From Reclinomonas americana ATCC 50394 (taxonomy: Eukaryota), in contig AFZH01020179.1 in assembly GCA_048213135.1 (NCBI GenBank), positions 1-56,527 on the forward strand: a stretch of DNA of 56,527 nt, written 5' to 3'. A program made the translations under genes and the position numbers. Each line of letters opens with the position of its first letter. Within the stretch, counting starts at the first letter, position 1. Below are positions 7,932-56,527 of the stretch, in pieces. The notes under the pieces were generated by a model, which saw nothing but the letters and a program-made list of their open reading frames with translations, was not told where the DNA came from and made no database searches.

Positions 7932-8953
7932 CTTGGTCCTGGCGAGCCGAAGATCTGGAACGCTCTCAGGACCATGTGGTCAAGCTGACCGGGACGACGG
8001 TCGGGGTGCTGAAGTCGCTTCTTCCGAACGATGAGAGCGACCCGACGCTCGCCCGTCATCGTGAGGCCGAAGGTCTGTCCGTCCAGCTGGCGGGCATCGC
8101 CTCGCACGTTCTGCGCAAGGTCAGGACCGGTCCTGGAATCATGGTCTTGAGCGGCGAGGGCCTCGATGAACTCTCCGACGGTCAACTGCGCGCGCTCACC
8201 ATTGGAATTGCACGGCGCATCGGTCGGCTCGTGGCGCAAAACGCTTCGGGTGAACGCATAGTGCTGGTCGCCGATCAGAGGCCCTCGGACCTCAAGAGTG
8301 CGCGTGGCTATCTGACGAACGAGAACATGCTGTTGCACACCGACGCCTCGGACGTGGCGGCGCTCCTGTGTCTGGCTCCGTCCGCGCGGGGAGGCGGAAG
8401 TCTCCTGGCGAGTTCGGCCGCCGTCCACGATGTGCTCTGCGACGAGGCTCCCGACGAGCTGCACGCCTTCTATCGAACTTGGCGATGGAACGTCGGCAGC
8501 ATGCGCGTCGCCGACATCGACGGAACGCTGTCCTCGCCGATCTTCAGTGTGCGAGACGGCCGACTGAGTTGTCGGTACGGCTCCTATATGCTCCGCGAAG
8601 CGCGGGCCGGGGGCAGGCCGCTCACAGAGGATGCGCTGAGAGCCCTCGACCGTTTCGAGGACGTCGCCAGGCGCCCTGAGCTTCTCTTGCGTCATCGGCT
8701 GCAGCGCGGCGAAATCCTCTGGATGGACAACTACAGAGTTCTCCACGGGAGGGAGGCCTTCGTCGACGAAGCGTCGGAAGAACATGCACGCCGATTTCTT
8801 CGTTTCTGGATCAGGCTGCACGACCGACCGGCGCTCGCCGAGACATTCTCTCGGTTCGACGACGTCTTGCTCGACCATTTCGAAGCGGCTGCCGCCGCGC
8901 AACTGAACTCCCCCGACGACCTGCCAGGCCGGCCGAACCACCGGTCTCTATAA
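7928..8953 (+). CDS. TauD/TfdA-family Fe(II)/2-oxoglutarate dioxygenase
   Basis: LHTD (HxD) and DNYRVLHGR motifs. ATG 7928 overlaps the upstream stop (ATGA). Confidence 0.85.
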   Translation: MTWSWRAEDLERSQDHVVKLTGTTVGVLKSLLPNDESDPTLARHREAEGLSVQLAGIASHVLRKVRTGPGIMVLSGEGLDELSDGQLRALTIGIARRIGRLVAQNASGERIVLVADQRPSDLKSARGYLTNENMLLHTDASDVAALLCLAPSARGGGSLLASSAAVHDVLCDEAPDELHAFYRTWRWNVGSMRVADIDGTLSSPIFSVRDGRLSCRYGSYMLREARAGGRPLTEDALRALDRFEDVARRPELLLRHRLQRGEILWMDNYRVLHGREAFVDEASEEHARRFLRFWIRLHDRPALAETFSRFDDVLLDHFEAAAAAQLNSPDDLPGRPNHRSL

Positions 8954-18204: not shown

Positions 18205-18975
18205 ATGCCCGGTTCCGAATGGCTCGGCCCCTCGTGGCATGGCGCTCAACCACCATGGCGGGTCGGCCGCCGCTCCGACGCATTCGGAGCTGAGCCCCAT
18301 CGGTCTTCCGATGTCTCGCTGCCCATTGGCGGCCCGCCGTCACGTTGGGCTCTGGATGCGATGCTCCGCACTACGGGGCCGGTGGAAAAGTCCAAGCGGG
18401 CGCGCCTCGAATGGGCTGCATTGGACCTCGAAATCGTGATGTCCCTTGCCCCGTCCCGGGCGCGCATAGTCGAAATCGGATGCGCGCCACATCTCCTCGC
18501 CGGGCCCCTCACCGATCTCGGACACCGGTTCGAGGGCACGACGTTGTCACGTGCGACAGTCGAAACAGAAGGGTCGGACCTGCCCGGCCCTGGTACGCAT
18601 GTCGACAGTCTCCCCGATGCAGGGTTCGATCTCGTGATACGCAACGAGGTCTTTCAGCGCGAACCGCGCGATTTCGAAGTGCTTCTCTTTCAAGCTTCCA
18701 GGTTGCTGAGACGGGGCGGTCACCTCCTCCTGTCGACCGCAAACGTTCCAAGGCACCGCGGTCCCTCGCGCTGTGTCCCCACTCCCGACACGACGGGCGG
18801 CGAGGCGGAAGATGGTGGCCGCGAATTCCCAAGCGTGGAGCACGACGTCCGCTTCCACGTGCGAACAGTGCTGTTCAGGGCGGGATCGCGGCCGTTGGGA
18901 CCTCTGAGCAGAATCGCGCGTGATCTGGCGCCGCGTCTTCGCCCCTACGCGACTCACGTGGCTCGCAAGATCTGA
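18205..18975 (+). CDS. Class I SAM-methyltransferase-like protein, possibly degenerate (start uncertain)
   Basis: IVEIGCA, FDLVI..EV and RLLRRGGHLLLST motifs. Low-complexity N-terminus. Confidence 0.5.
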   Translation: MPGSEWLGPSWHGAQPPWRVGRRSDAFGAEPHRSSDVSLPIGGPPSRWALDAMLRTTGPVEKSKRARLEWAALDLEIVMSLAPSRARIVEIGCAPHLLAGPLTDLGHRFEGTTLSRATVETEGSDLPGPGTHVDSLPDAGFDLVIRNEVFQREPRDFEVLLFQASRLLRRGGHLLLSTANVPRHRGPSRCVPTPDTTGGEAEDGGREFPSVEHDVRFHVRTVLFRAGSRPLGPLSRIARDLAPRLRPYATHVARKI

Positions 18976-36071: not shown

Positions 36072-36458
36072 ATGAAGCCCAGATCCTCCAACGTGAAATT
36101 GCCGGCGAAGGCCCCTGCGGAGCAGGTGGTGAAGGACATTCGGCGACAGACGCGGCGCCACTTCTCGGCCGAGGACAAGATCCGCATCGTGCTCGAGGGC
36201 CTGCGCGGTGAGGACAGCATCGCCGAGCTGTGCCGCAAGGAAGGGATCGCCCAGAGCCTGTACTACACTTGGTCGAAGGAGTTCATGGAGGCGGGCAAGC
36301 GCCGCCTGGCCGGGGACACCGCCCGGGCCGCGACCACCGGCGAGGTGCAGGACCTGCGCCGCGAAGCCCGCGCCCTGAAGGAATGCGTGGCGGACCTGAC
36401 GCTGGAGAACCGTCTGCTCAAAAAAAGCATGATCGCGGATGGGGGCGACGACGCATGA
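36072..36458 (+). CDS. IS3-family transposase OrfA (HTH)
   Basis: RRHFSAEDKIRIVLEG..SIAELCRKEGI..YY.W motif, ends near A7G. Confidence 0.9.
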   Translation: MKPRSSNVKLPAKAPAEQVVKDIRRQTRRHFSAEDKIRIVLEGLRGEDSIAELCRKEGIAQSLYYTWSKEFMEAGKRRLAGDTARAATTGEVQDLRREARALKECVADLTLENRLLKKSMIADGGDDA

Positions 36459-37455
36459 GGTACCCCGCATCCGAGAAGCTGGAGATCATCAGGATCGTCG
36501 AGCAGTCGCACCTGCCGGCCAAACGCACGCTGGACCAGCTGGGCATTCCCCGTCGGACCTTCTACCGCTGGTACGACCGCTACCTCGACGGCGGGCCCGA
36601 AGCCTTGGAGGACCGGTCCTCGGCGCCGAGCAGGGTGTGGAACCGCATCGGCGACGACATCCAGGGTCAGATCGTCGAGATGGCGCTGGAGCACAGCGAG
36701 CTGTCCCCGCGCGAACTGGCGGTGCGATTTACCGATGAACGTCAGTACTTTGTCTCCGAGGCCACGGTCTATCGGCTGCTCAAGGCCCACGACCTGATCA
36801 CCAGCCCGGCCTTCGTGGTGATCAAGGCCGCCGACGCCTTCCACACCAAGACCACGCGGCCGAACCAGATGTGGCAGACCGAAACGAAGTTCGGCGAAGC
36901 CACTTTACCTACTTCAAGATCATCGGGTGGGGCTGGATGTATCTGTCGACCGTGCTCGACGACTTCTCGCGCTACATCATCGCCTGGAAGCTGTGCGCCA
37001 ACATGCGCGCACAGGACGTCACCGACACGCTGGACCTGGCCCTGGCGGCTTCCGGCTGTGACAGCGCCAAGGTGCTGCACAAGCCCCGGCTGCTCAGCGA
37101 CAACGGCCCCAGCTACATCGCCGATGAGCTGGCCCAATACATCGAGGCCAACAAGATGAGCCATGTGCGCGGCGCCCCGATGCATCCCCAGACCCAGGGC
37201 AAGATCGAGCGCTGGCATCAGACCTTGAAGAACCGCATCCTGCTGGAAAACTACTTCCTGCCCGGCGACCTGGAGGCCCAGATCCAGGCCTTCGTCGAGC
37301 ACTACAACCACCAGCGCTATCACGAGAGCCTGGCCAACGTGACCCCGGCCGACGCCTACTTCGGCAGGGCCGCTGCCATCATCAAACGGCGGGAACGGCT
37401 CAAGCGGCAGACCCTCGAATATCGGCGCTTGCTGCACCGCAAGCTCGCCGCCTAA
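36455..37455 (+). pseudogene. IS3-family transposase OrfB (DDE) frameshifted by a 20-bp insertion
   Basis: Removing 36882-36901 restores QMWQTDFTYF. SDNG and GKIERWH motifs lie downstream in another frame. Confidence 0.85.
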
Positions 37456-37529
37456 CATCAACCCCCAGACGAGGCCCGCTCTCCGCTAATTTACGCCCCC
37501 ATCTGCGCCGAATGTCCTGACGACGGACA

Positions 37530-38069
37530 GCGCAAGGTCGCCAGCAGATGCGGTGAGAGCAGCGCGTCACGGTCGCGCCGACCCTTGCCCTGTTCGACCC
37601 GAATGCGCATGCGCTGGCTGTCGATGTCGCCGACCTTCAGGCCCACGACCTCGGCGGCCCGCAGGCCCGCGCCATAGGCCACACTGAGCGCGGTGCGCCA
37701 CTTGAGCCCCGGCGCCGCCTGCAACAGCCGCGCGACCTCGTCCGGCGTCAGCACGACCGGCAATCTCTGCGGCTGGCGGGCGATCGGGATGTAGTCCAAG
37801 GCCTCTGGCCGCTTGAGCGTCACGCGGAAGAAGAACCGCAGCGCCACCATCGCGCCGTTGATGCTGGCTGGGGCCAGGCCGCTTTGCGTCAGGTGCAGCT
37901 GGTAGCGCCGCACATCCTCGAACGTCAGCTCGCCCGGGGTCCTGCCGCAGTAGCGACTGCAGGATCGAACCGCTCGGATGTAGGTCTCTTGGGTCCGCGG
38001 ATCGAAGTTGCGGAGGGTCATGTCTTCGACCATCCTGCGACGCAACGGGTGGATCGCTTCTTCGGGCAT
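37530..38069 (-). pseudogene. Tyrosine recombinase (type usually paired with IS91-like transposases), C-terminally truncated by the IS3 element
   Basis: PLRRRMVEDMTLRN...TQETYIRAV N-terminus, LPVVL..EV, YGAGLR..E, GKG..DR. The HxxR and Tyr region is missing. Confidence 0.85.
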
Positions 38070-38076
38070 CACTCGT

Positions 38077-38127
38077 CTCCTGTCTTGAGGAGGACGTGGC
38101 CGACCCACGCTCCTCTTCAGACAGGAG
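38077..38127. promoter_or_regulatory. Long imperfect hairpin covering the recombinase RBS
   Basis: Nested arms CTCCTGTCT/AGACAGGAG, GAGGAG/CTCCTC, CGTGG/CCACG. Confidence 0.65.
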
Positions 38128-43546: not shown

Positions 43547-43589
43547 AATGTCCGCTTGCTGGAGCTGACCCAACGGCAGCTCGTGGCGC
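43547..43589 (+). repeat. Conserved intergenic bipartite motif, copy 1
   Basis: AATGTCCGCTTGCTGGAGCTGACCC-AACGGCAGCTCGTGGCGC. Confidence 0.75.
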
Positions 43590-43659
43590 GGAGCGGTTTG
43601 GCTTCGAAAGACCTAACGCGGCAGATTGCGTAGCCGGCTCCATGACTTAAGAGAAACGG

Positions 43660-47522: not shown

Positions 47523-47565
47523 AATGTCTTATTCCTGGAGGCAAGCAAACGGCGGCTCCTGGCGT
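47523..47565 (+). repeat. Conserved intergenic bipartite motif, copy 2
   Basis: AATGTCTTATTCCTGGAGGCAAGCA-AACGGCGGCTCCTGGCGT. Confidence 0.75.
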
Positions 47566-47727
47566 AACGGGGCGGCTAGTTGGGGGCGCACGTCAATCGA
47601 TGGCCTGGAGGTCAGTCGACGAAATCCGGACAATGCAGGATTGTGCCTAGTGCAACGATCCGCAGCACGATAGCTTGCGGCCAAGCTGTCGCTTCATCGC
47701 ATGAGTACGCTCCCCGAGGAGGGATCC

Positions 47728-48658: not shown

Positions 48659-49611
48659 TCCGCGCCATCGTGCTGGCCTGGCTGCTGCCGCTTCTGGGGG
48701 CGGCGCCCGTCGCCGCAGCCGAGCGCGACGTCTACTTCGTGGCGATCGGCTCATCCAATTACGTCGATCCCGGCGACGCGACGCTTCGAGGCTTTGGCCG
48801 TATCCTGGGCGCGAACAAGAGCGCCAGGGCGGTTGGCGATCTGCTGACCCAGAGGGGGGGCCGCGCGGGCGTCGTGCTGACCGCGCCCAAGGATGGATAC
48901 GTCAGCGCGCAGGATATGAGACGCGCGTTGGACGAGATCGGAAAGATCCTCGCCAAGGACAGGCCCAAGTCGCCTTTCCTGATCGCATACATCGCCAGTC
49001 ACGGCGTGTCCGAGGGGTTCGCCTGGTCCCATTTTTCGATACCGGGCGACGTGGTCTTCCGCCGCGCCGAGAACGGATTGACCATGGATCAGATGATGCA
49101 GGGCGGCGTCAGCGCCGCCGAACTGGTCGACGTCTTGGACAAGCTCAAGGTCCCGTACCTGTTGCTTCTCGACAGCTGCTACGAGGGCAAGGCGGCGGTG
49201 CTTGAAAGTCCGGTCCTGTCGCCGGCCGCCTCGCAATCCTTGGCAGGCATCGGCGCAGTCCTGCGTCAGATCAACATGTTCGAACAGGCGAGCCCCGTCG
49301 TCTATTCGACGACCCCGGGCCAATTGGTCTCAACCGTGCCAGATCCGCGCCAGGGGAACGCCGACGCCGTCGCTCCGATCGCGCGCAGACTGTTGATCGT
49401 GTTCGCTCGGCCCGATCATCCAAGGACGCTGGGAGCCCTGCTGAAGGCGGTTGTCGATCCGGGCCTGGACACGCTCACCGGGCCACCCGTCACGCACGCC
49501 AAGGCCGCGGGGTTCTGGAACGACACCCTCTTCAAGGCACCCGACGCGACCGCGCGGGTCGATGTGCGACAAGGCACGGCGGATAAGCCGAGCGTCTGCT
49601 GCGGCGGATAG
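48655..49611 (+). CDS. Caspase-family (C14) peptidase with signal peptide
   Basis: VAIGSSNY, ASHG and LLDSC catalytic dyad motifs. Confidence 0.75.
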   Translation: MIRAIVLAWLLPLLGAAPVAAAERDVYFVAIGSSNYVDPGDATLRGFGRILGANKSARAVGDLLTQRGGRAGVVLTAPKDGYVSAQDMRRALDEIGKILAKDRPKSPFLIAYIASHGVSEGFAWSHFSIPGDVVFRRAENGLTMDQMMQGGVSAAELVDVLDKLKVPYLLLLDSCYEGKAAVLESPVLSPAASQSLAGIGAVLRQINMFEQASPVVYSTTPGQLVSTVPDPRQGNADAVAPIARRLLIVFARPDHPRTLGALLKAVVDPGLDTLTGPPVTHAKAAGFWNDTLFKAPDATARVDVRQGTADKPSVCCGG

Positions 49612-49647
49612 CCGACTAAATGGCGCTGGCTCTCTCACCTGTTGTTC

Positions 49648-49686
49648 AATGTCCCGTTTCCAGAGGTGCGCCAAGGTCGGCTCCTG
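49648..49686 (+). repeat. Conserved intergenic bipartite motif, copy 3, left part (interrupted by IS110; right part GGCGC resumes at 51034)
   Basis: AATGTCCCGTTTCCAGAGGTGCGCC-AAGGTCGGCTCCT|GGCGCGG after removing the IS. Confidence 0.75.
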
Positions 49687-49747
49687 ATGCCGTGGACGGC
49701 TCCCCACCCAGGTCGCAGGCTATGTGCGGCCGTAATGGAGGAGCGCC

Positions 49748-50776
49748 ATGGAAGAGGTGGTCACGGTGGGATTGGACATCGCCAAGTCGGTGTTTCGGGT
49801 CCACGGAGTCGATGCTGCGGGCCATGTGGTCGTGCAGCGCAAGCTCACGCGAGCGAAGCTTATCCCGTTCTTTGAGAAGCTGCCGCGCTGTCGGGTGGGG
49901 ATTGAGGCCTGCGCCACAGCACATCACTGGGGTCGCCGGCTGACTGAGCTGGGCCACGAGGTGAAGCTGATGCCGCCTTCCTACGTGAAGCCCTATGTGA
50001 AGCGGCAGAAGAACGACGCGGCTGATGCCGAGGCGATTTGCGAAGCTGTGACCCGGCCGACGATGCGTTTTGTCGAGGTGAAGGCCCCCGAGCAGCAGAG
50101 CGTGCTGGTGATCCATCGAACTCGGATGACCCTGATGCGTCACCGGATCGAGCTTTCCAACACGATCCGGGCTCACCTAGCCGAGTTTGGCCTGGTGGCT
50201 CCGATCGGCCGGATGGGGCTGCAGAGCCTGGTAGAGATCATTCGCGACGAGACCGATGAGCGGGTGCCGGTGAGCGCGCGGATCTGCCTGAAGTTGCTGG
50301 CTGACCAACTCGACCTGGTGAACCGCCAGGCGCTGGAGACCGATCGACTGACCCTAGCGAGCGCGCGGGCGAGCGATGTGGGCCGCCGGCTGATGGCCGT
50401 TCCCGGCATCGGCCCCGTGCTCGCTAGCGCAATCGTGGCCAGCGTGCCGGATCCACACGCCTTCAAGTCTGGTCGAAACCTATCGGCCTGGATCGGCCTC
50501 GTGCCCAAGCAAAACTCAAGCGGCGGTAAGGAGCGGCTCGGCGGCATCACCAAGCAGGGCAACAGATATCTGCGCCAGCTGTTGGTGGTCGGCGCGCTCG
50601 CCGTTATCCGCTACGCCGAACGACACGGGTCGAGGCGACCCTGGCTCCTGCAGCTGATGGCGCGGCGGACCACGAAGGTCGCCGCGGTGGCGCTGGCCAA
50701 CAAGAACGCCCGCATGATCTGGGCGATCATGACCAGCGGCGAGGCCTATCGAGAGCCGCAGCTGCAAGCCGCGTAG
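49748..50776 (+). CDS. IS110-family transposase/recombinase
   Basis: GLDIAK, IEAC, KNDAADA (DEDD) and SSGGK motifs. Confidence 0.95.
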   Translation: MEEVVTVGLDIAKSVFRVHGVDAAGHVVVQRKLTRAKLIPFFEKLPRCRVGIEACATAHHWGRRLTELGHEVKLMPPSYVKPYVKRQKNDAADAEAICEAVTRPTMRFVEVKAPEQQSVLVIHRTRMTLMRHRIELSNTIRAHLAEFGLVAPIGRMGLQSLVEIIRDETDERVPVSARICLKLLADQLDLVNRQALETDRLTLASARASDVGRRLMAVPGIGPVLASAIVASVPDPHAFKSGRNLSAWIGLVPKQNSSGGKERLGGITKQGNRYLRQLLVVGALAVIRYAERHGSRRPWLLQLMARRTTKVAAVALANKNARMIWAIMTSGEAYREPQLQAA

Positions 50777-50829
50777 AGATCAGGCGCCAACGGCGTCGGA
50801 CCAGTTTGGGAAGGGCGACGAAGGAGTGA

Positions 50830-51000
50830 TGTGATCCGGTCGAACCGGGAAGCGGGAAAACCCAACGCGCCATCGTGCTTCAAAGCACGTGCTTTTGGTC
50901 GGGACCTAGCTTCGCGGAGGGCATCATGGCCAGCGGCCCATGCGCCGCACCAACAGGTCGAAGACATGGCCGCACCGACCAGCTGTCACAGAACTCTCAG
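50830..51000 (+). ncRNA. Predicted seek/bridge RNA of the IS1111-type element (ends approximate)
   Basis: Four 7-nt segments match the target and donor junctions (50866-72, 50891-97, 50920-26, 50962-68), with internal hairpins between each pair. Confidence 0.6.
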
Positions 51001-51285
51001 ATCAACCTTGCCAACGGGGAGCCGTCCAGACATGGCGCGGATCGCCCGTCGAGCCGTACCCGTCGCGCGATGGGGCAAAAGGGAGAGCCGCCTAACCTGT
51101 GACGGACCAAGTCAGAGCGTAGGCGTCGCTCGGCCCAGCGGCTTCGTCGAGTTGAGGGTGTGCCTCCCAGTTTGCCAGTGTCGGCTCGTCGCTAAGACCC
51201 GTTTTGCTGAGAACAGCAGCCAACGCTGCGTTGTTGGGGTGGCAGGTCACTGCGAGCTGGCCCCGGGGACGCTCCCCGCCGGCGC

Positions 51286-52446
51286 CTAGAGATCGATGCT
51301 GACAGGCCCTTCCGTAACGGTCGCGCCCATGGCCTTAAGCCGCGCCACCACGTCGCCGATGTCGTGCTCGGCCGGCGTGTAGGTCTTGTGCAGCGCATCG
51401 CGGTACTTGCGGTGCGTCTGCTGGATGTGATCGACCGAATAGGTCAGGTGCAGGGTGAAGTTTGGAGATGCGGCCCGAACCTCGGCGATCATTTCCAGCG
51501 TCGCGCGGTCGGGGTTTCCGAACTTGCCGTCGCCTGAAGCGACGTAGTGACGAGCCGGCAGTCGCGCGAAGAAGTCCTTGTCGACGTTGCGAATGCTGCC
51601 GTGGTGCGGCAGCTTCAGGATGTCGAGCGCGAGCGCGCCGTGGGGCGACAAAAGTCCGGCCGCTTCGAGGCCCTTGAGAATCTTGTCACCCCGGGCGTCG
51701 CCGGTGAGCAACGTCTTGCGGCCTTGCCAGTCAACCAGGGCGACGATGCTGGAAAGGTTGGGCACGGACTTGTCCGCATAGGCGGCGAAGGCCTTGCGCG
51801 CGTCCGCCGACTGGGTGGCCTCCCACTTGGCCCATTCGGCGCGCAGCTTGTCGATGTCATCCTGCAGCGGACCCAGGATGACGAACTTCGCCTGGCCGAC
51901 CGAGAAGCCCATGGGGGGATGGGCTGAGCGGAAGATGTCGCCGCTGGGGGTGGCGTCGAGATTGATCGGGATCCCCAACCCCTTGGCCAATGTGCGCAGG
52001 GCCGCGCCATTTTCGATGCTGGCGAAGATCTCCGCCGCCTCGCCCATGTCATCGGCTCCTTGGCTAGCCGAGAGGCTGGCGAAGGCGCTGGCGGGGGCGC
52101 CCGCGGCGTGGCCCGAGCCCTTGGCCAGACCTTGGAAGCTGTTGTGGATCAGCTTTTCGATGCGAACCGCGCGCGGCTGATGAGCATCGACCGAGGCCCT
52201 TATGCTTGTGAAGAGGTCGACGAGACCGACCACATGGTCGTCATCGACGTGACTGACCATGACCGCGTCGAGCACCAGCGGTCCGCCGGCGGGCTTGAGC
52301 GACTGAAGCTTGGCCTTGAGCGCGCCGGCATAGACGCCGCTGGGTCCCCCATCGATCAGCATCCGCCGAACCGCGCCTTGATCCGGAATGGTCAGCAGCA
52401 GGCTGTCGCCGAACTTGGCCGGCAGGGCTTCGAACCTCATGCTCAT
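51286..52446 (-). CDS. MBL-fold metallo-hydrolase (ComEC/Rec2-like, putative nuclease)
   Basis: GDSLLL, LIDGG, SHVDDDH, N.SSIV, LLTGD, KLPHHGS motifs. ATGA overlap with the S8 stop. Confidence 0.85.
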   Translation of the reverse strand: MSMRFEALPAKFGDSLLLTIPDQGAVRRMLIDGGPSGVYAGALKAKLQSLKPAGGPLVLDAVMVSHVDDDHVVGLVDLFTSIRASVDAHQPRAVRIEKLIHNSFQGLAKGSGHAAGAPASAFASLSASQGADDMGEAAEIFASIENGAALRTLAKGLGIPINLDATPSGDIFRSAHPPMGFSVGQAKFVILGPLQDDIDKLRAEWAKWEATQSADARKAFAAYADKSVPNLSSIVALVDWQGRKTLLTGDARGDKILKGLEAAGLLSPHGALALDILKLPHHGSIRNVDKDFFARLPARHYVASGDGKFGNPDRATLEMIAEVRAASPNFTLHLTYSVDHIQQTHRKYRDALHKTYTPAEHDIGDVVARLKAMGATVTEGPVSIDL

Positions 52447-54290
52447 CTCCATTGCAGCGCACGAAGCGCGTCGACCAGTCCCGCGCCCTGAAAGGCGCGT
52501 TCGCGCCGCAGGTCCGTGGCCGTGGCCATCAGGGTGTTCTTGATCTCGAAAGGGTCGCCCACCAGTTCGATGCGACGGGCCATCAGCAGAGCGGCCACGC
52601 CGCTGACATGCGGTGCGGCCATGCTCGTGCCGTCTAGCTGACCTTGCTTCTCGTCGGGCAGGGGGCCGTCGATCTTTTCGCCCGGGGCCACGAGGTCGGG
52701 TTTCATACGGCCATCGCCGGTCGGTCCGCGCGAGGAGAAAAAGCTCACCCCATAAGTCATCGGGCGCTCGCGATGGGTCGCGCCGACCGTGATCACCGAC
52801 TCCGCATTGCCTGGATCCATAATCGAGGCCGAAGCATAGCCCTCGTAGCTGCGCTGCTCGCTGAGCAGGAAGCTCTGCCAGCCTTCGTTACCGGCGGCTG
52901 CGACCACCACCACGCCGTTGTCCACCAGCGTATCGCAAGCCACGCAAACCGGCGTCTGACCGCAGGCCCAGTTGCGCACATCGTGCTTCATGCCGATGCT
53001 CAGATTGACGCCATGGACCACGCGATAGCGGTTGCGGTTGTTGAGCCAGGCGATGAACTCCAAGGCGCCGATGACGCCGAACTCGGTCTCATCGCGCGTG
53101 TCGCCCAACACCCTGAGGTCCAGGAGCCGCAGATCCGGGCAAACCCCGACCAAGTCAGCTTCCGGCCAATGCCCGGCCAGAACGCCGGCGACGTGGGTGC
53201 CATGCGGTTCGCGCGGCCGTGTCTCGGGGGCGATGCGCAGCAGCGGTTCCAGCAGCGTCCAGCTGAAGGGCCGTTCCTGCTGGGCGTCCCGGCGCATCTG
53301 CTCCAGAAGCTCTGCGGCGGTCAGGTCCGGCATGGCGTCGTGGCTGGCGTTGGCGGCTGGCGGAGCGTCTTGTCGCCACCGGGCGATATCGGCTTCCAGC
53401 GCTTGGAAGGGCGCACTGCTCGGCTCCAGGAGGATGTCGTAGCTGGTCAGGCGTCGCAGGCGCGAGAAGTCGTAGGCGCCGACGATGCGGTGGGCGTCGA
53501 GGTTTTCCGGATCGCGAAAGGAAGGATGGGTGGCGTCTATCCCGGAGTCGACGACTGCCCAGAGCAGGTCGCGACAGCCGGCCTCGAACACTCGGCGCGC
53601 GGCGTCAGCCTTGATGGTGCGGATGGAGGCGGCGCCGAGCGGTTGGGCTTGCCGGTTCAGCGTGGCGCGGCGAAAGACCGGGCGCGGCCTCTCGCGCGCT
53701 TGGGTGGTGGTGCGCCATCCCAGCTCGGAGAATATCACGGCGGCGACGCCATCGGCCCGACGCATGGCCACGGCGGCCTGGCCCGCCGTGGCCACTGGCC
53801 GGTCGAAATGACGCGCGTGCAGGATCAAGGTGGCCAGGGCGCTGAGGCGTTCTTGGCGATCGGGCGCGTGCTCGCGCGCCTCATGGCGTCGATTGCTCTC
53901 CAGGGGCTCGATCCGCTCGAGCACTTCGGCGGCGGCGTCGGTGGTGAGAACGTTGATCTCGAGTCCGATCAGGGGGGCAAGCGCGAACAAGAGTTCGTCG
54001 AAAGCCAGATTGGCGGCCACGAACCCCTGCAGCGGCGAGACATGCGCGGCCGGTCGCGCGCTGTCGGGTTCTCGATAGTGGCGCAGGTTCTCGGCTAGAG
54101 CCATGGCCGCGCGGGGCGGCGTGGTGGTCTCGGCCGGCGACAAGAGCAGAGAGACCCGATCCTCGGGTTGTGCGGCGAACGCCGCCCACACGTCGGTCAG
54201 GATCGAGACGTCATGGACCAGCCGCAACCCCGAACGTGCGTCATGCAGCAGGCGCTCGACAAGGGAGCGGGCGACAACGGCGTCAGACAA
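52443..54290 (-). CDS. S8 subtilisin-like serine peptidase, no signal peptide
   Basis: VVDSGID, HGTHVAG, AAGN, GTSMAAPHVSG triad motifs. Confidence 0.92.
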   Translation of the reverse strand: MSDAVVARSLVERLLHDARSGLRLVHDVSILTDVWAAFAAQPEDRVSLLLSPAETTTPPRAAMALAENLRHYREPDSARPAAHVSPLQGFVAANLAFDELLFALAPLIGLEINVLTTDAAAEVLERIEPLESNRRHEAREHAPDRQERLSALATLILHARHFDRPVATAGQAAVAMRRADGVAAVIFSELGWRTTTQARERPRPVFRRATLNRQAQPLGAASIRTIKADAARRVFEAGCRDLLWAVVDSGIDATHPSFRDPENLDAHRIVGAYDFSRLRRLTSYDILLEPSSAPFQALEADIARWRQDAPPAANASHDAMPDLTAAELLEQMRRDAQQERPFSWTLLEPLLRIAPETRPREPHGTHVAGVLAGHWPEADLVGVCPDLRLLDLRVLGDTRDETEFGVIGALEFIAWLNNRNRYRVVHGVNLSIGMKHDVRNWACGQTPVCVACDTLVDNGVVVVAAAGNEGWQSFLLSEQRSYEGYASASIMDPGNAESVITVGATHRERPMTYGVSFFSSRGPTGDGRMKPDLVAPGEKIDGPLPDEKQGQLDGTSMAAPHVSGVAALLMARRIELVGDPFEIKNTLMATATDLRRERAFQGAGLVDALRALQWR

Positions 54291-56401: not shown

Positions 56402-56509
56402 GACCAACTCCTGCTTATGGGGCGAACTGGAACGAAACGCAGGCATAAGTAGAGCAGAGCTCGGCCATAAGCGCCAGTGCTTTTCAGTGGGCTGCTAACA
56501 AGGGGTCCC

Positions 56510-56527
56510 AACGGCCGCTTCTGGCGC
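56510..56527 (+). repeat. Conserved intergenic motif, copy 4 (right block only, at window edge)
   Basis: AACGGCCGCTTCTGGCGC. The upstream AATGTC block is not conserved. Confidence 0.65.

Follow-up and report, generated by a model that had tools for sequence, protein, structure and literature searches.

An IS1111-group insertion sequence with a predicted target- and donor-matching RNA, inserted in a clustered intergenic motif

Results

The locus described here is a 1,348-bp insertion sequence (IS) which occupies positions 49687..51034 (+) of a 56,527-nt stretch of DNA, that is, contig AFZH01020179.1 (positions 1 to 56,527, forward strand) of the Reclinomonas americana ATCC 50394 assembly GCA_048213135.1; this whole stretch is referred to as 'the window'. 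The element starts with ATGCCG at 49687 and ends with ...CCAGACATG at 51034, its last seven nucleotides being AGACATG. To its left, the interrupted target motif AATGTC...GCTCCTG (49648..49686, +) ends with ...AAGGTCGGCTCCTG at 49686 (GCTCCTG at 49680-49686), and to its right the flank starts with GCGCGG, the first five bases of which (51035..51039, +) constitute the right target GCGCG. Since TG closes both the left flank and the element, the boundary can be slid by 2 nt, and TG is therefore taken as a shared core, one copy of which is counted with the right end. The insertion is site-specific, duplicates nothing of the target beyond this common 2-nt core, and has the same target core at every copy of the lineage examined. 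Perfect 13-bp subterminal inverted repeats, TGGACGGCTCCCC (49693..49705, +) and GGGGAGCCGTCCA (51016..51028, +), lie six nucleotides in from the left and right ends, respectively. The terminal extensions thus measure 6 nt each when the core is counted with the right one, or 8 (left) and 4 nt (right) with the boundary slid; neither pair equals the left and right extensions of 7 and 3 bp usual for the IS1111 group, in which the left one may also be 6 bp.

The sole long frame within the element with a high G+C content at third codon positions (GC3) is open over its full length (49748..50776, +) and encodes a transposase of 342 amino acids (aa) with a DEDD/RuvC-like domain and a C-terminal Transposase_20 domain. 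The protein matches Pfam PF01548 (DEDD_Tnp_IS110; 50.4 bits, cut-off 29) and PF02371 (Transposase_20; 92.7 bits, cut-off 21.3) as well as the NCBIfam model NF033542, 'IS110 family RNA-guided transposase' (333 bits, cut-off 140). It carries the sequence GLVPKQNSSG, i.e., the GL-P----S(t)G motif which section 6 of PMC11187229 (Siddiquee et al. 2024) lists, along with a length of 330-350 aa, for IS1111-family transposases. The same paper describes for this group subterminal inverted repeats of usually 11-13 bp, perfect or nearly so, and a longer non-coding region downstream of the transposase gene (tnp); in the window element, the non-coding regions measure 258 nt 3' and 61 nt 5' of tnp. Domains, protein length, motif, perfect 13-bp repeats, long downstream non-coding region and site-specific insertion are all traits of the IS1111 group. 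No named close relative of the transposase was found: plasmid matches reach at most 75% identity and are unnamed alphaproteobacterial 'IS110 family transposase' genes, and enterobacterial members stay below 60%. Judged by its sequence, the element belongs to the IS1111 group and carries a predicted bridge/seek RNA in its right end, a kind already known and not a new system.

Four 7-nt segments of this non-coding right end correspond to the two flanks and the two ends of the element. The T-guide, CGCGCCA (50866..50872, +), pairs with the top strand of the core TG and right flank GCGCG (7/7 Watson-Crick), and the B-guide, GCTTTTG (50891..50897, +), fits the bottom strand at the left flank GCTCCTG through five Watson-Crick pairs and two U:G wobbles, the last two bases of this flank being the core. 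The donor guide D1, GGCATCA (50920..50926, +), complements the core TG and left end ATGCC, and D2, AGACATG (50962..50968, +), repeats the final seven nucleotides of the element, that is, right end plus core. An earlier reading made from the sequence only had claimed that guide segments can be read in the non-coding end; on inspection of 49400-51300, the four segments and the hairpin CGTGCT/AGCACG lie exactly where that reading had placed them, and, as described below, they change together with the flanks and ends of the related elements. When the mononucleotides of the 239-nt tail were shuffled 50,000 times, any single 7-mer arose in 1.4-4.4% of cases (the left-flank match being counted with wobble), while all four jointly arose in none (0/50,000).

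Relatives were collected from one genome per species. A relative is encoded in 395 of 482 candidate stretches, and the best 80 of these (61-97% aa identity) were kept; simple end patterns placed both ends in 68 of the 80, the 12 misses being short contigs or variant ends, and the last 235-270 nt align well across related elements. Some copies are decaying: frames are extended or disrupted, or tails truncated, at loci L020, L024, L026, L027 and L061 (one metagenome-assembled genome), and about 90 nt of the RNA region are missing from L020.

For the 59 elements with both flanks, the longest complementary runs between guide and flank were summed and compared for own and permuted flanks. The sum is 404 for the T-guide (permuted, 287 +/- 9) and 270 for the B-guide (permuted, 229 +/- 8), neither of which is reached by any of 10,000 permutations, although these values overstate significance because the related elements are not independent of one another. 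Scored in fixed register, the T-guide and the B-guide each have at least 6/7 positions paired in 56/63 elements. Position by position, the T-guide is strict at the core and the first four flank bases (50-59/59 Watson-Crick), weak at the fifth (34 + 4 wobble) and unread beyond. In the B-guide, positions -7 to -5 and the core are strict, and positions -4 and -3 are loose (32 + 10 and 36 + 13 of 59).

Individual elements exhibit this correspondence directly. On the right side, T-guide TGGGTCA accompanies TG|ACCCA in L004, and TTGGGCCA and ATGTGCCA are paired at 8/8 positions with TG|GCCCAA in L077 and TG|GCACAT in L078, respectively. Three identical copies in the chromosome of Defluviicoccus vanus (L015, L016, L017) have the T-guide TTATCCCA and the target ..GACGCACCTG|GGATA.., i.e., TG|GGATA; as far as can be judged from guide and target sequences, these copies represent a case of natural reprogramming among members of the family. 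On the left side, the B-guide equals the flank exactly (7/7) in L059 (GCTATTG) and L066 (GCTTCTG), GGTTTTG is both guide and left flank in L037, L058 and L060, and L005 has GGAGTTG alongside the flank CAAGTTG. In three elements with a CG core (L006, L014, L040), the change is present in T-guide, B-guide, D2, left flank and right end.

The donor guides were scored in fixed register in 67 elements, and at least 6/7 positions are paired in all 67 for both D1 and D2, with 7/7 Watson-Crick pairs for D2 in 60/67. D2 tracks the right end: AGACATG accompanies GACATG in the window lineage, ACACATG accompanies CACATG elsewhere, and ACACACG accompanies CACACG in the three CG-core elements.

The predicted bridge/seek RNA is about 210 nt long (50806..51014, +), has a closing stem formed by 50806-14 and 51006-14, and comprises 46 pairs in ten helices. 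The model was drawn from the window sequence and RNAalifold and scored over 59 distinct sequences: (i) 88.9% of cells are paired, compared with 31-46% after the partners have been shifted by 1-3 columns, (ii) 128 cells are changed on both sides, compared with 47 in shuffles, and (iii) the covariation score is 0.191, compared with 0.115 in shuffles, and neither of the latter two values is reached in any of 500 shuffles. The model consists of two internal loops, each with a hairpin cap. In loop 1, the 5' side carries CGCGCCA and the 3' side GCTTTTG, and the distal hairpin CGTGCT-TCAA-AGCACG (50874..50889, +) exhibits compensatory changes, e.g., A-U to G-C in 20/59 sequences. Loop 2 has GGCATCA and AGACATG on its two sides, and pairing reaches 99.7% and 100% in its distal stems TGGCC/GGTCG and GCGG/CCGC (50927..50960, +; helices 9 and 10), which are nearly invariant. 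Comparison of these sequences demonstrates a tail with a conserved fold, in which four segments correspond to target and ends and change along with them. The loop-1 hairpin together with what follows it, TGCTTTTGG (50874-50899), scores as intrinsic-terminator-like, and one may speculate that this site could set the 3' end of a short seekRNA just past the B-guide.

Further copies of the lineage occupy the same kind of site. Four genomes with close relatives yielded a second full copy (L082 in the Phenylobacterium genome G001) and further left ends (L084, L089), all with the same kind of flanks, and the left flanks in G002 (Caulobacter) and G004 agree with the lineage target. Scanning metagenome contigs for the 19-nt right end yielded 46 loci, in 37 of which the right flank begins with GCGC; seven of the other nine have no similarity to the element past the 19-mer, and the remaining two (L153, L176) are a diverged element in which the aligned guide column reads GCTGC opposite the flank GCAGC. 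A tail homologous to that of the window element is present at 21 metagenome loci, representing 19 distinct sites, and GCGC follows on the right at 19/19 of these, with G as the fifth base at 3/19. Ten distinct left flanks were recovered, nine of which read GCTnnTG; in two (L151/L158 and L165), GCTCCTG stands against the guide GCTTTTG, which requires two wobbles just as at the window site. At the 19 distinct metagenome sites and in the Phenylobacterium and Caulobacter genomes, the lineage copies lie before GCGC and, with the exception of one of the ten metagenome left flanks, after ..GTCCGCTnnTG, and not in unrelated sequence. The flanks GCTYYTG-GCGCG, which the sequence-only reading had expected for other copies, were accurate as to GCTnnTG|GCGC; YY was too strict because A and G occur at the two middle positions besides C and T, and the fifth base on the right is mostly not G.

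Run X1 includes a contig of 2,056 nt in which a 98.8% identical copy (16 differences over 49676-51039) lies at another site. The left loose end of this contig, 30 nt long, is the same as the sequence next to a GTCCGCTCGTGGCGC site that is unoccupied in G002; the right flank of the X1 insertion and that empty site agree at 0.6, the loose-end consensus mixing two contigs. The window's own flanks are absent from G001-G004 and G008, a 24-nt string of the left flank has no match in the metagenome contigs, and no empty copy of the exact locus was found among these sequences.

The site rebuilt by removal of the element had been taken for one copy of a motif, and it does recur. Two further full copies, both unoccupied, intergenic and of the same 39-nt geometry, lie at 43547..43590 (+) and 47523..47566 (+), a partial copy comprising the right half lies at the window end (56501..56527, +; nhmmer E = 0.16, weak), and more are found in related genomes (below). 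The pattern AATGTC-N26-GCTNNTG matches three times in the window (43547, 47523, 49648; all +, 39 nt and intergenic) against 0.20 expected, and with GGCG added twice against 0.02 expected, figures which are generous because the pattern was written after the copies had been seen; the intergenic status of near-matches was read off a GC3-based gene map. A near-cognate target with one mismatch per guide, GGTCGGCTCGTGGCGCAAAAC, also lies in a coding region (8222-8251, +) and is probably due to chance (nhmmer E = 0.088). Within the window, the 20-mer of the sequence-only reading has no other copy at up to three mismatches, the 12-mer core is not enriched (33 against 24.4 expected), nor is the degenerate family pattern GTCCGCTNNTGGCRC (50 against 69.5 expected), and blastn-short with the rebuilt site gave no enrichment. 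The conclusion that the motif does not recur was dropped, the motif being longer and looser than these searches assume.

A profile of the three window copies detects nine more within 40 kb of the Caulobacter genome G002 (C1:4636000-4675999; L205 and L206), all on one strand, and two to four weaker ones beside L082 on the Phenylobacterium contig (C2:96000-150000; L207-L209). In G002, the copies separate units of one or two genes in mixed orientation (DUF6119, FRG, PhyH, DUF302, SLFN_AlbA_2, DUF4238 and a piece of a tyrosine recombinase), a layout which is cassette-like. The consensus from 15 copies, about 45 nt long, reads GAAnGTCyggttnCtGGag-N6-gCCAAnGnCnGCTnnTGGCGC. These copies have sequence in common and not structure (alifold energy -0.06 kcal/mol), and share no hairpin.

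Two known kinds of repeat were considered and rejected. Integron attC sites are expected to be imperfect palindromes, alike in structure but not in sequence, whereas the motif copies share sequence only, and no inverse cores RYYYAAC...GTTRRRY (50-140 nt apart) lie near any motif copy; with the element removed, the window contains just two such pairs, at 25-151 and 18244-18350. Repetitive extragenic palindromic (REP) sequences and bacterial interspersed mosaic elements (BIMEs) were rejected because the motif has no hairpin, is low in copy number, and is clustered rather than genome-wide. Consistently, the target core is in no genome-wide excess in G001 (7 against 9 in the control) or G002 (3 against 6), a mild excess being seen only in a Bradyrhizobium genome (38 against 25). 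On the basis of its sequence, the motif is a real, clustered, one-directional intergenic repeat which is neither attC nor classical REP. Hence, what had been called a 'cassette motif' survives as a recurring, clustered intergenic repeat and not as a canonical integron attC site, and the proposal that the element is programmed against this repeat family draws support from the lineage sites, from guide covariation, and from motif recurrence in the window and in related genomes.

Left of the motif copies in the window lies a truncated tyrosine recombinase (37491-38108, -) with a Phage_int_SAM_4 domain and part of a Phage_integrase domain, the best NCBIfam model for which is the integron integrase TIGR02249 (93 bits against a cut-off of 265). 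In G002, where the nine-copy array is found, no integron integrase matched above cut-off. The recombinase pieces of the window and of the G002 array do not align, which is uninformative on a link with the motif because they cover different halves of the fold. It is tempting, if rather doubtful, to regard the motif as a site at which the cassettes of a hitherto undescribed Caulobacterales system are bounded or recombined. Such a system would resemble integrons in layout and differ from them in the type of site, since the motif is conserved in sequence without a hairpin, and this IS1111 lineage would then parasitise the motif as the IS1111-attC group parasitises integrons.

More distant relatives, from Hyphomicrobiales, are inserted in a true palindrome, ATGTCCGCTnnTG|GCAC..AGCGGACAT. 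The Bradyrhizobium-type insertions (L042, L043, L048, L050, L055, L058, L072, L076, L077, L079) lie about 30-40 nt 3' of open reading frames (ORFs) ending ..GCCGACGAGGTGATCGAATAA/TAG (A-D-E-V-I-E-stop), and the repeat which they target thus follows a paralogous gene family, as the insertions sit downstream of ORFs with the same ending.

Other features of the window concern its neighbouring genes. An IS3-family remnant (36072-37549, with rve domains at 36739-37455) abuts and cuts the recombinase fragment at 37491-38108. A 180-nt inverted repeat, 91% complementary, joins 58-237 with 37370-37549 and suggests a second copy of the end of this IS3-family element at the window start. Right of the IS1111-group element, a gene for an MBL-fold protein resembling AVAST type 1 Avs1a (51286-52452, -; 131 bits against a cut-off of 420) adjoins that for an S8 subtilase (52443-54290, -), and the two may be an anti-phage pair; the IS1111-group element lies just downstream of them.

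Discussion

Our findings make it very likely that 49687-51034 is an intact IS1111-group IS, the tail RNA of which, with a target and a donor loop, matches the site and the ends, and that its insertion is RNA-guided. If the element behaves as described for its family in PMC11187229, PMC11208160 (Durrant et al. 2024) and PMC12288879, it would excise as a circle, transposase and RNA would pair the circle junction with a chromosomal site fitting the target loop, and recombination would occur at the TG core. The site occupied in the window is a near-cognate copy of the ~45-nt intergenic motif, read through two U:G wobbles. Joining of the ends probably builds a promoter for the transposase gene: TTGCCA (51008..51013, +), a possible -35 half which would find its partner only in the excised circle, would stand in TTGCCA-N17-CATGAT across the junction, the last hexamer reading CATGGC in the chromosome, and the geometry is the same in 58/67 relatives. 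Hybrid junction promoters are described for the IS1111 family in PMC12288879.

Several observations weigh against so complete a picture, in addition to the dependence among related elements already pointed out for the permutation values. The T-guide fails the fixed register in 7/63 elements, five of which (L010, L022, L023, L034, L040) resemble, by eye, a register shift of 1 nt. D1 is 7/7 Watson-Crick only in the window element, L002 and L003 (3/67), relies on two wobbles in most relatives, and does not change with the core where this has become CG; D2 and the right end are mismatched in L010, L022 and L059. Covariation lends the donor-loop helices weak support because they are almost invariant and fit the model without proving it, the single-sequence fold beats shuffles modestly (z = -2.0), and Rfam 15 gave no match in 49500-51300 even at E-values up to 10, although this subgroup may have no Rfam model. 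As to expression, the integrated element (49600-51150) yielded no sigma-70-like promoter. The sole hint of transcription is one 194-nt contig of depth 4.4 from RNA library X20, which lies wholly on 50819-51012 and has a T-guide variant (50866 C>T); it hints weakly at transcription of the tail and may be DNA carry-over. Coverage of the stretch by RNA runs X19 and X20 is confined to small parts and to contigs of low depth, and the uncovered parts are uninformative. Production of the tail RNA and mobility of the window copy are predicted from sequence comparison.

These points bear differently on the alternatives to be considered. That the four matches arose by chance, and that the transposase protein alone chooses the site, is scarcely conceivable: isolated 7-mers do turn up in a few percent of shuffled tails, but their joint occurrence was never seen, no permutation attained the observed guide-flank covariation, and the core changes in concert in three elements. 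A narrower view grants the tail a short target-seeking seekRNA only; D1 and D2 would then not be guides and would be conserved for other reasons, and the protein would read the ends via the subterminal repeats. It can draw on section 9 of PMC11187229, where predominant seekRNAs of 82-96 nt and target matches alone are described, on the terminator-like site after the loop-1 hairpin, at which an RNA could stop before the donor loop, and on the slight true covariation of D1. We nevertheless judge it improbable, since D2 changes with the right end across lineages, D1 and D2 face each other across a single internal loop, as the two target guides do across theirs, and IS1111 elements with donor loops are reported in PMC11208160.

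The RNA guide system might also have been real once, with the window copy being a relic that no longer moves. This reading gains from there being a single copy within the 56.5-kb window, and is the least unlikely of the alternatives while still standing well below an intact element in our estimate: the ORF is open and of full length, both inverted repeats are perfect, the four guides fit this copy's own site and ends, and copies 98.8-99% identical to it occur at other sites, in other samples and genomes. An intact, RNA-guided element hence remains the reading that we prefer.

As the mechanism is known, RNA-guided recombination having been described in 2024, this element adds a member and not a principle. 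The ~70 related elements do constitute a clean natural data set on the guide positions that are actually read: U:G wobble is in use at real sites, and a change of the core dinucleotide is shared by target, right end and three guides. As a probe, moreover, the guide has led to a conserved, one-directional intergenic motif in cassette-like arrays of Caulobacterales.

Among known systems, the seekRNA-bearing IS1111 elements described in PMC11187229 (ISEc11, ISPa11, ISKpn4, ISPst6) come closest. They are alike in (i) a DEDD transposase of 330-350 aa with GL-P----S(t)G, (ii) 11-13-bp subterminal repeats and a long non-coding region downstream of tnp, and (iii) guide order, overlap at the insertion point and a short repeated target; section 9 of that paper places the top-strand complement 5' of the bottom-strand complement, the two overlapping at the insertion point, and the guide order of the window element agrees with this. 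The window transposase, in contrast, is less than 60% identical to the enterobacterial plasmid members, and the target motif is different. IS621 has the core dinucleotide CT; the core is TG in the window lineage and CG in some relatives. The IS621 bridge RNA, as described in PMC11208160, is likewise built from internal loops for target and donor, the target loop lying 5' of the donor loop, and each loop having a 5' and a 3' guide for opposite strands around a 2-nt core. IS621 differs in that it belongs to the IS110 group, that its left end, 5' of the recombinase gene, encodes the RNA, and that its repeats are only 2-3 bp long; the location of the RNA in the right end of the window element agrees with that paper.

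The targets, finally, invite comparison with those of the IS1111-attC group (ISKpn4/ISPst6) and of the REP-targeting elements ISPa11 (Pseudomonas aeruginosa) and ISPpu9/ISPpu10 (P. putida). The Caulobacterales motif differs from these in being low-copy and clustered, and in having neither attC inverse cores nor a common hairpin. Yet, according to the descriptions in PMC11187229 and PMC12288879, these elements insert, as does the lineage reported here, in one orientation and at a constant position within a short intergenic repeat which punctuates gene units.

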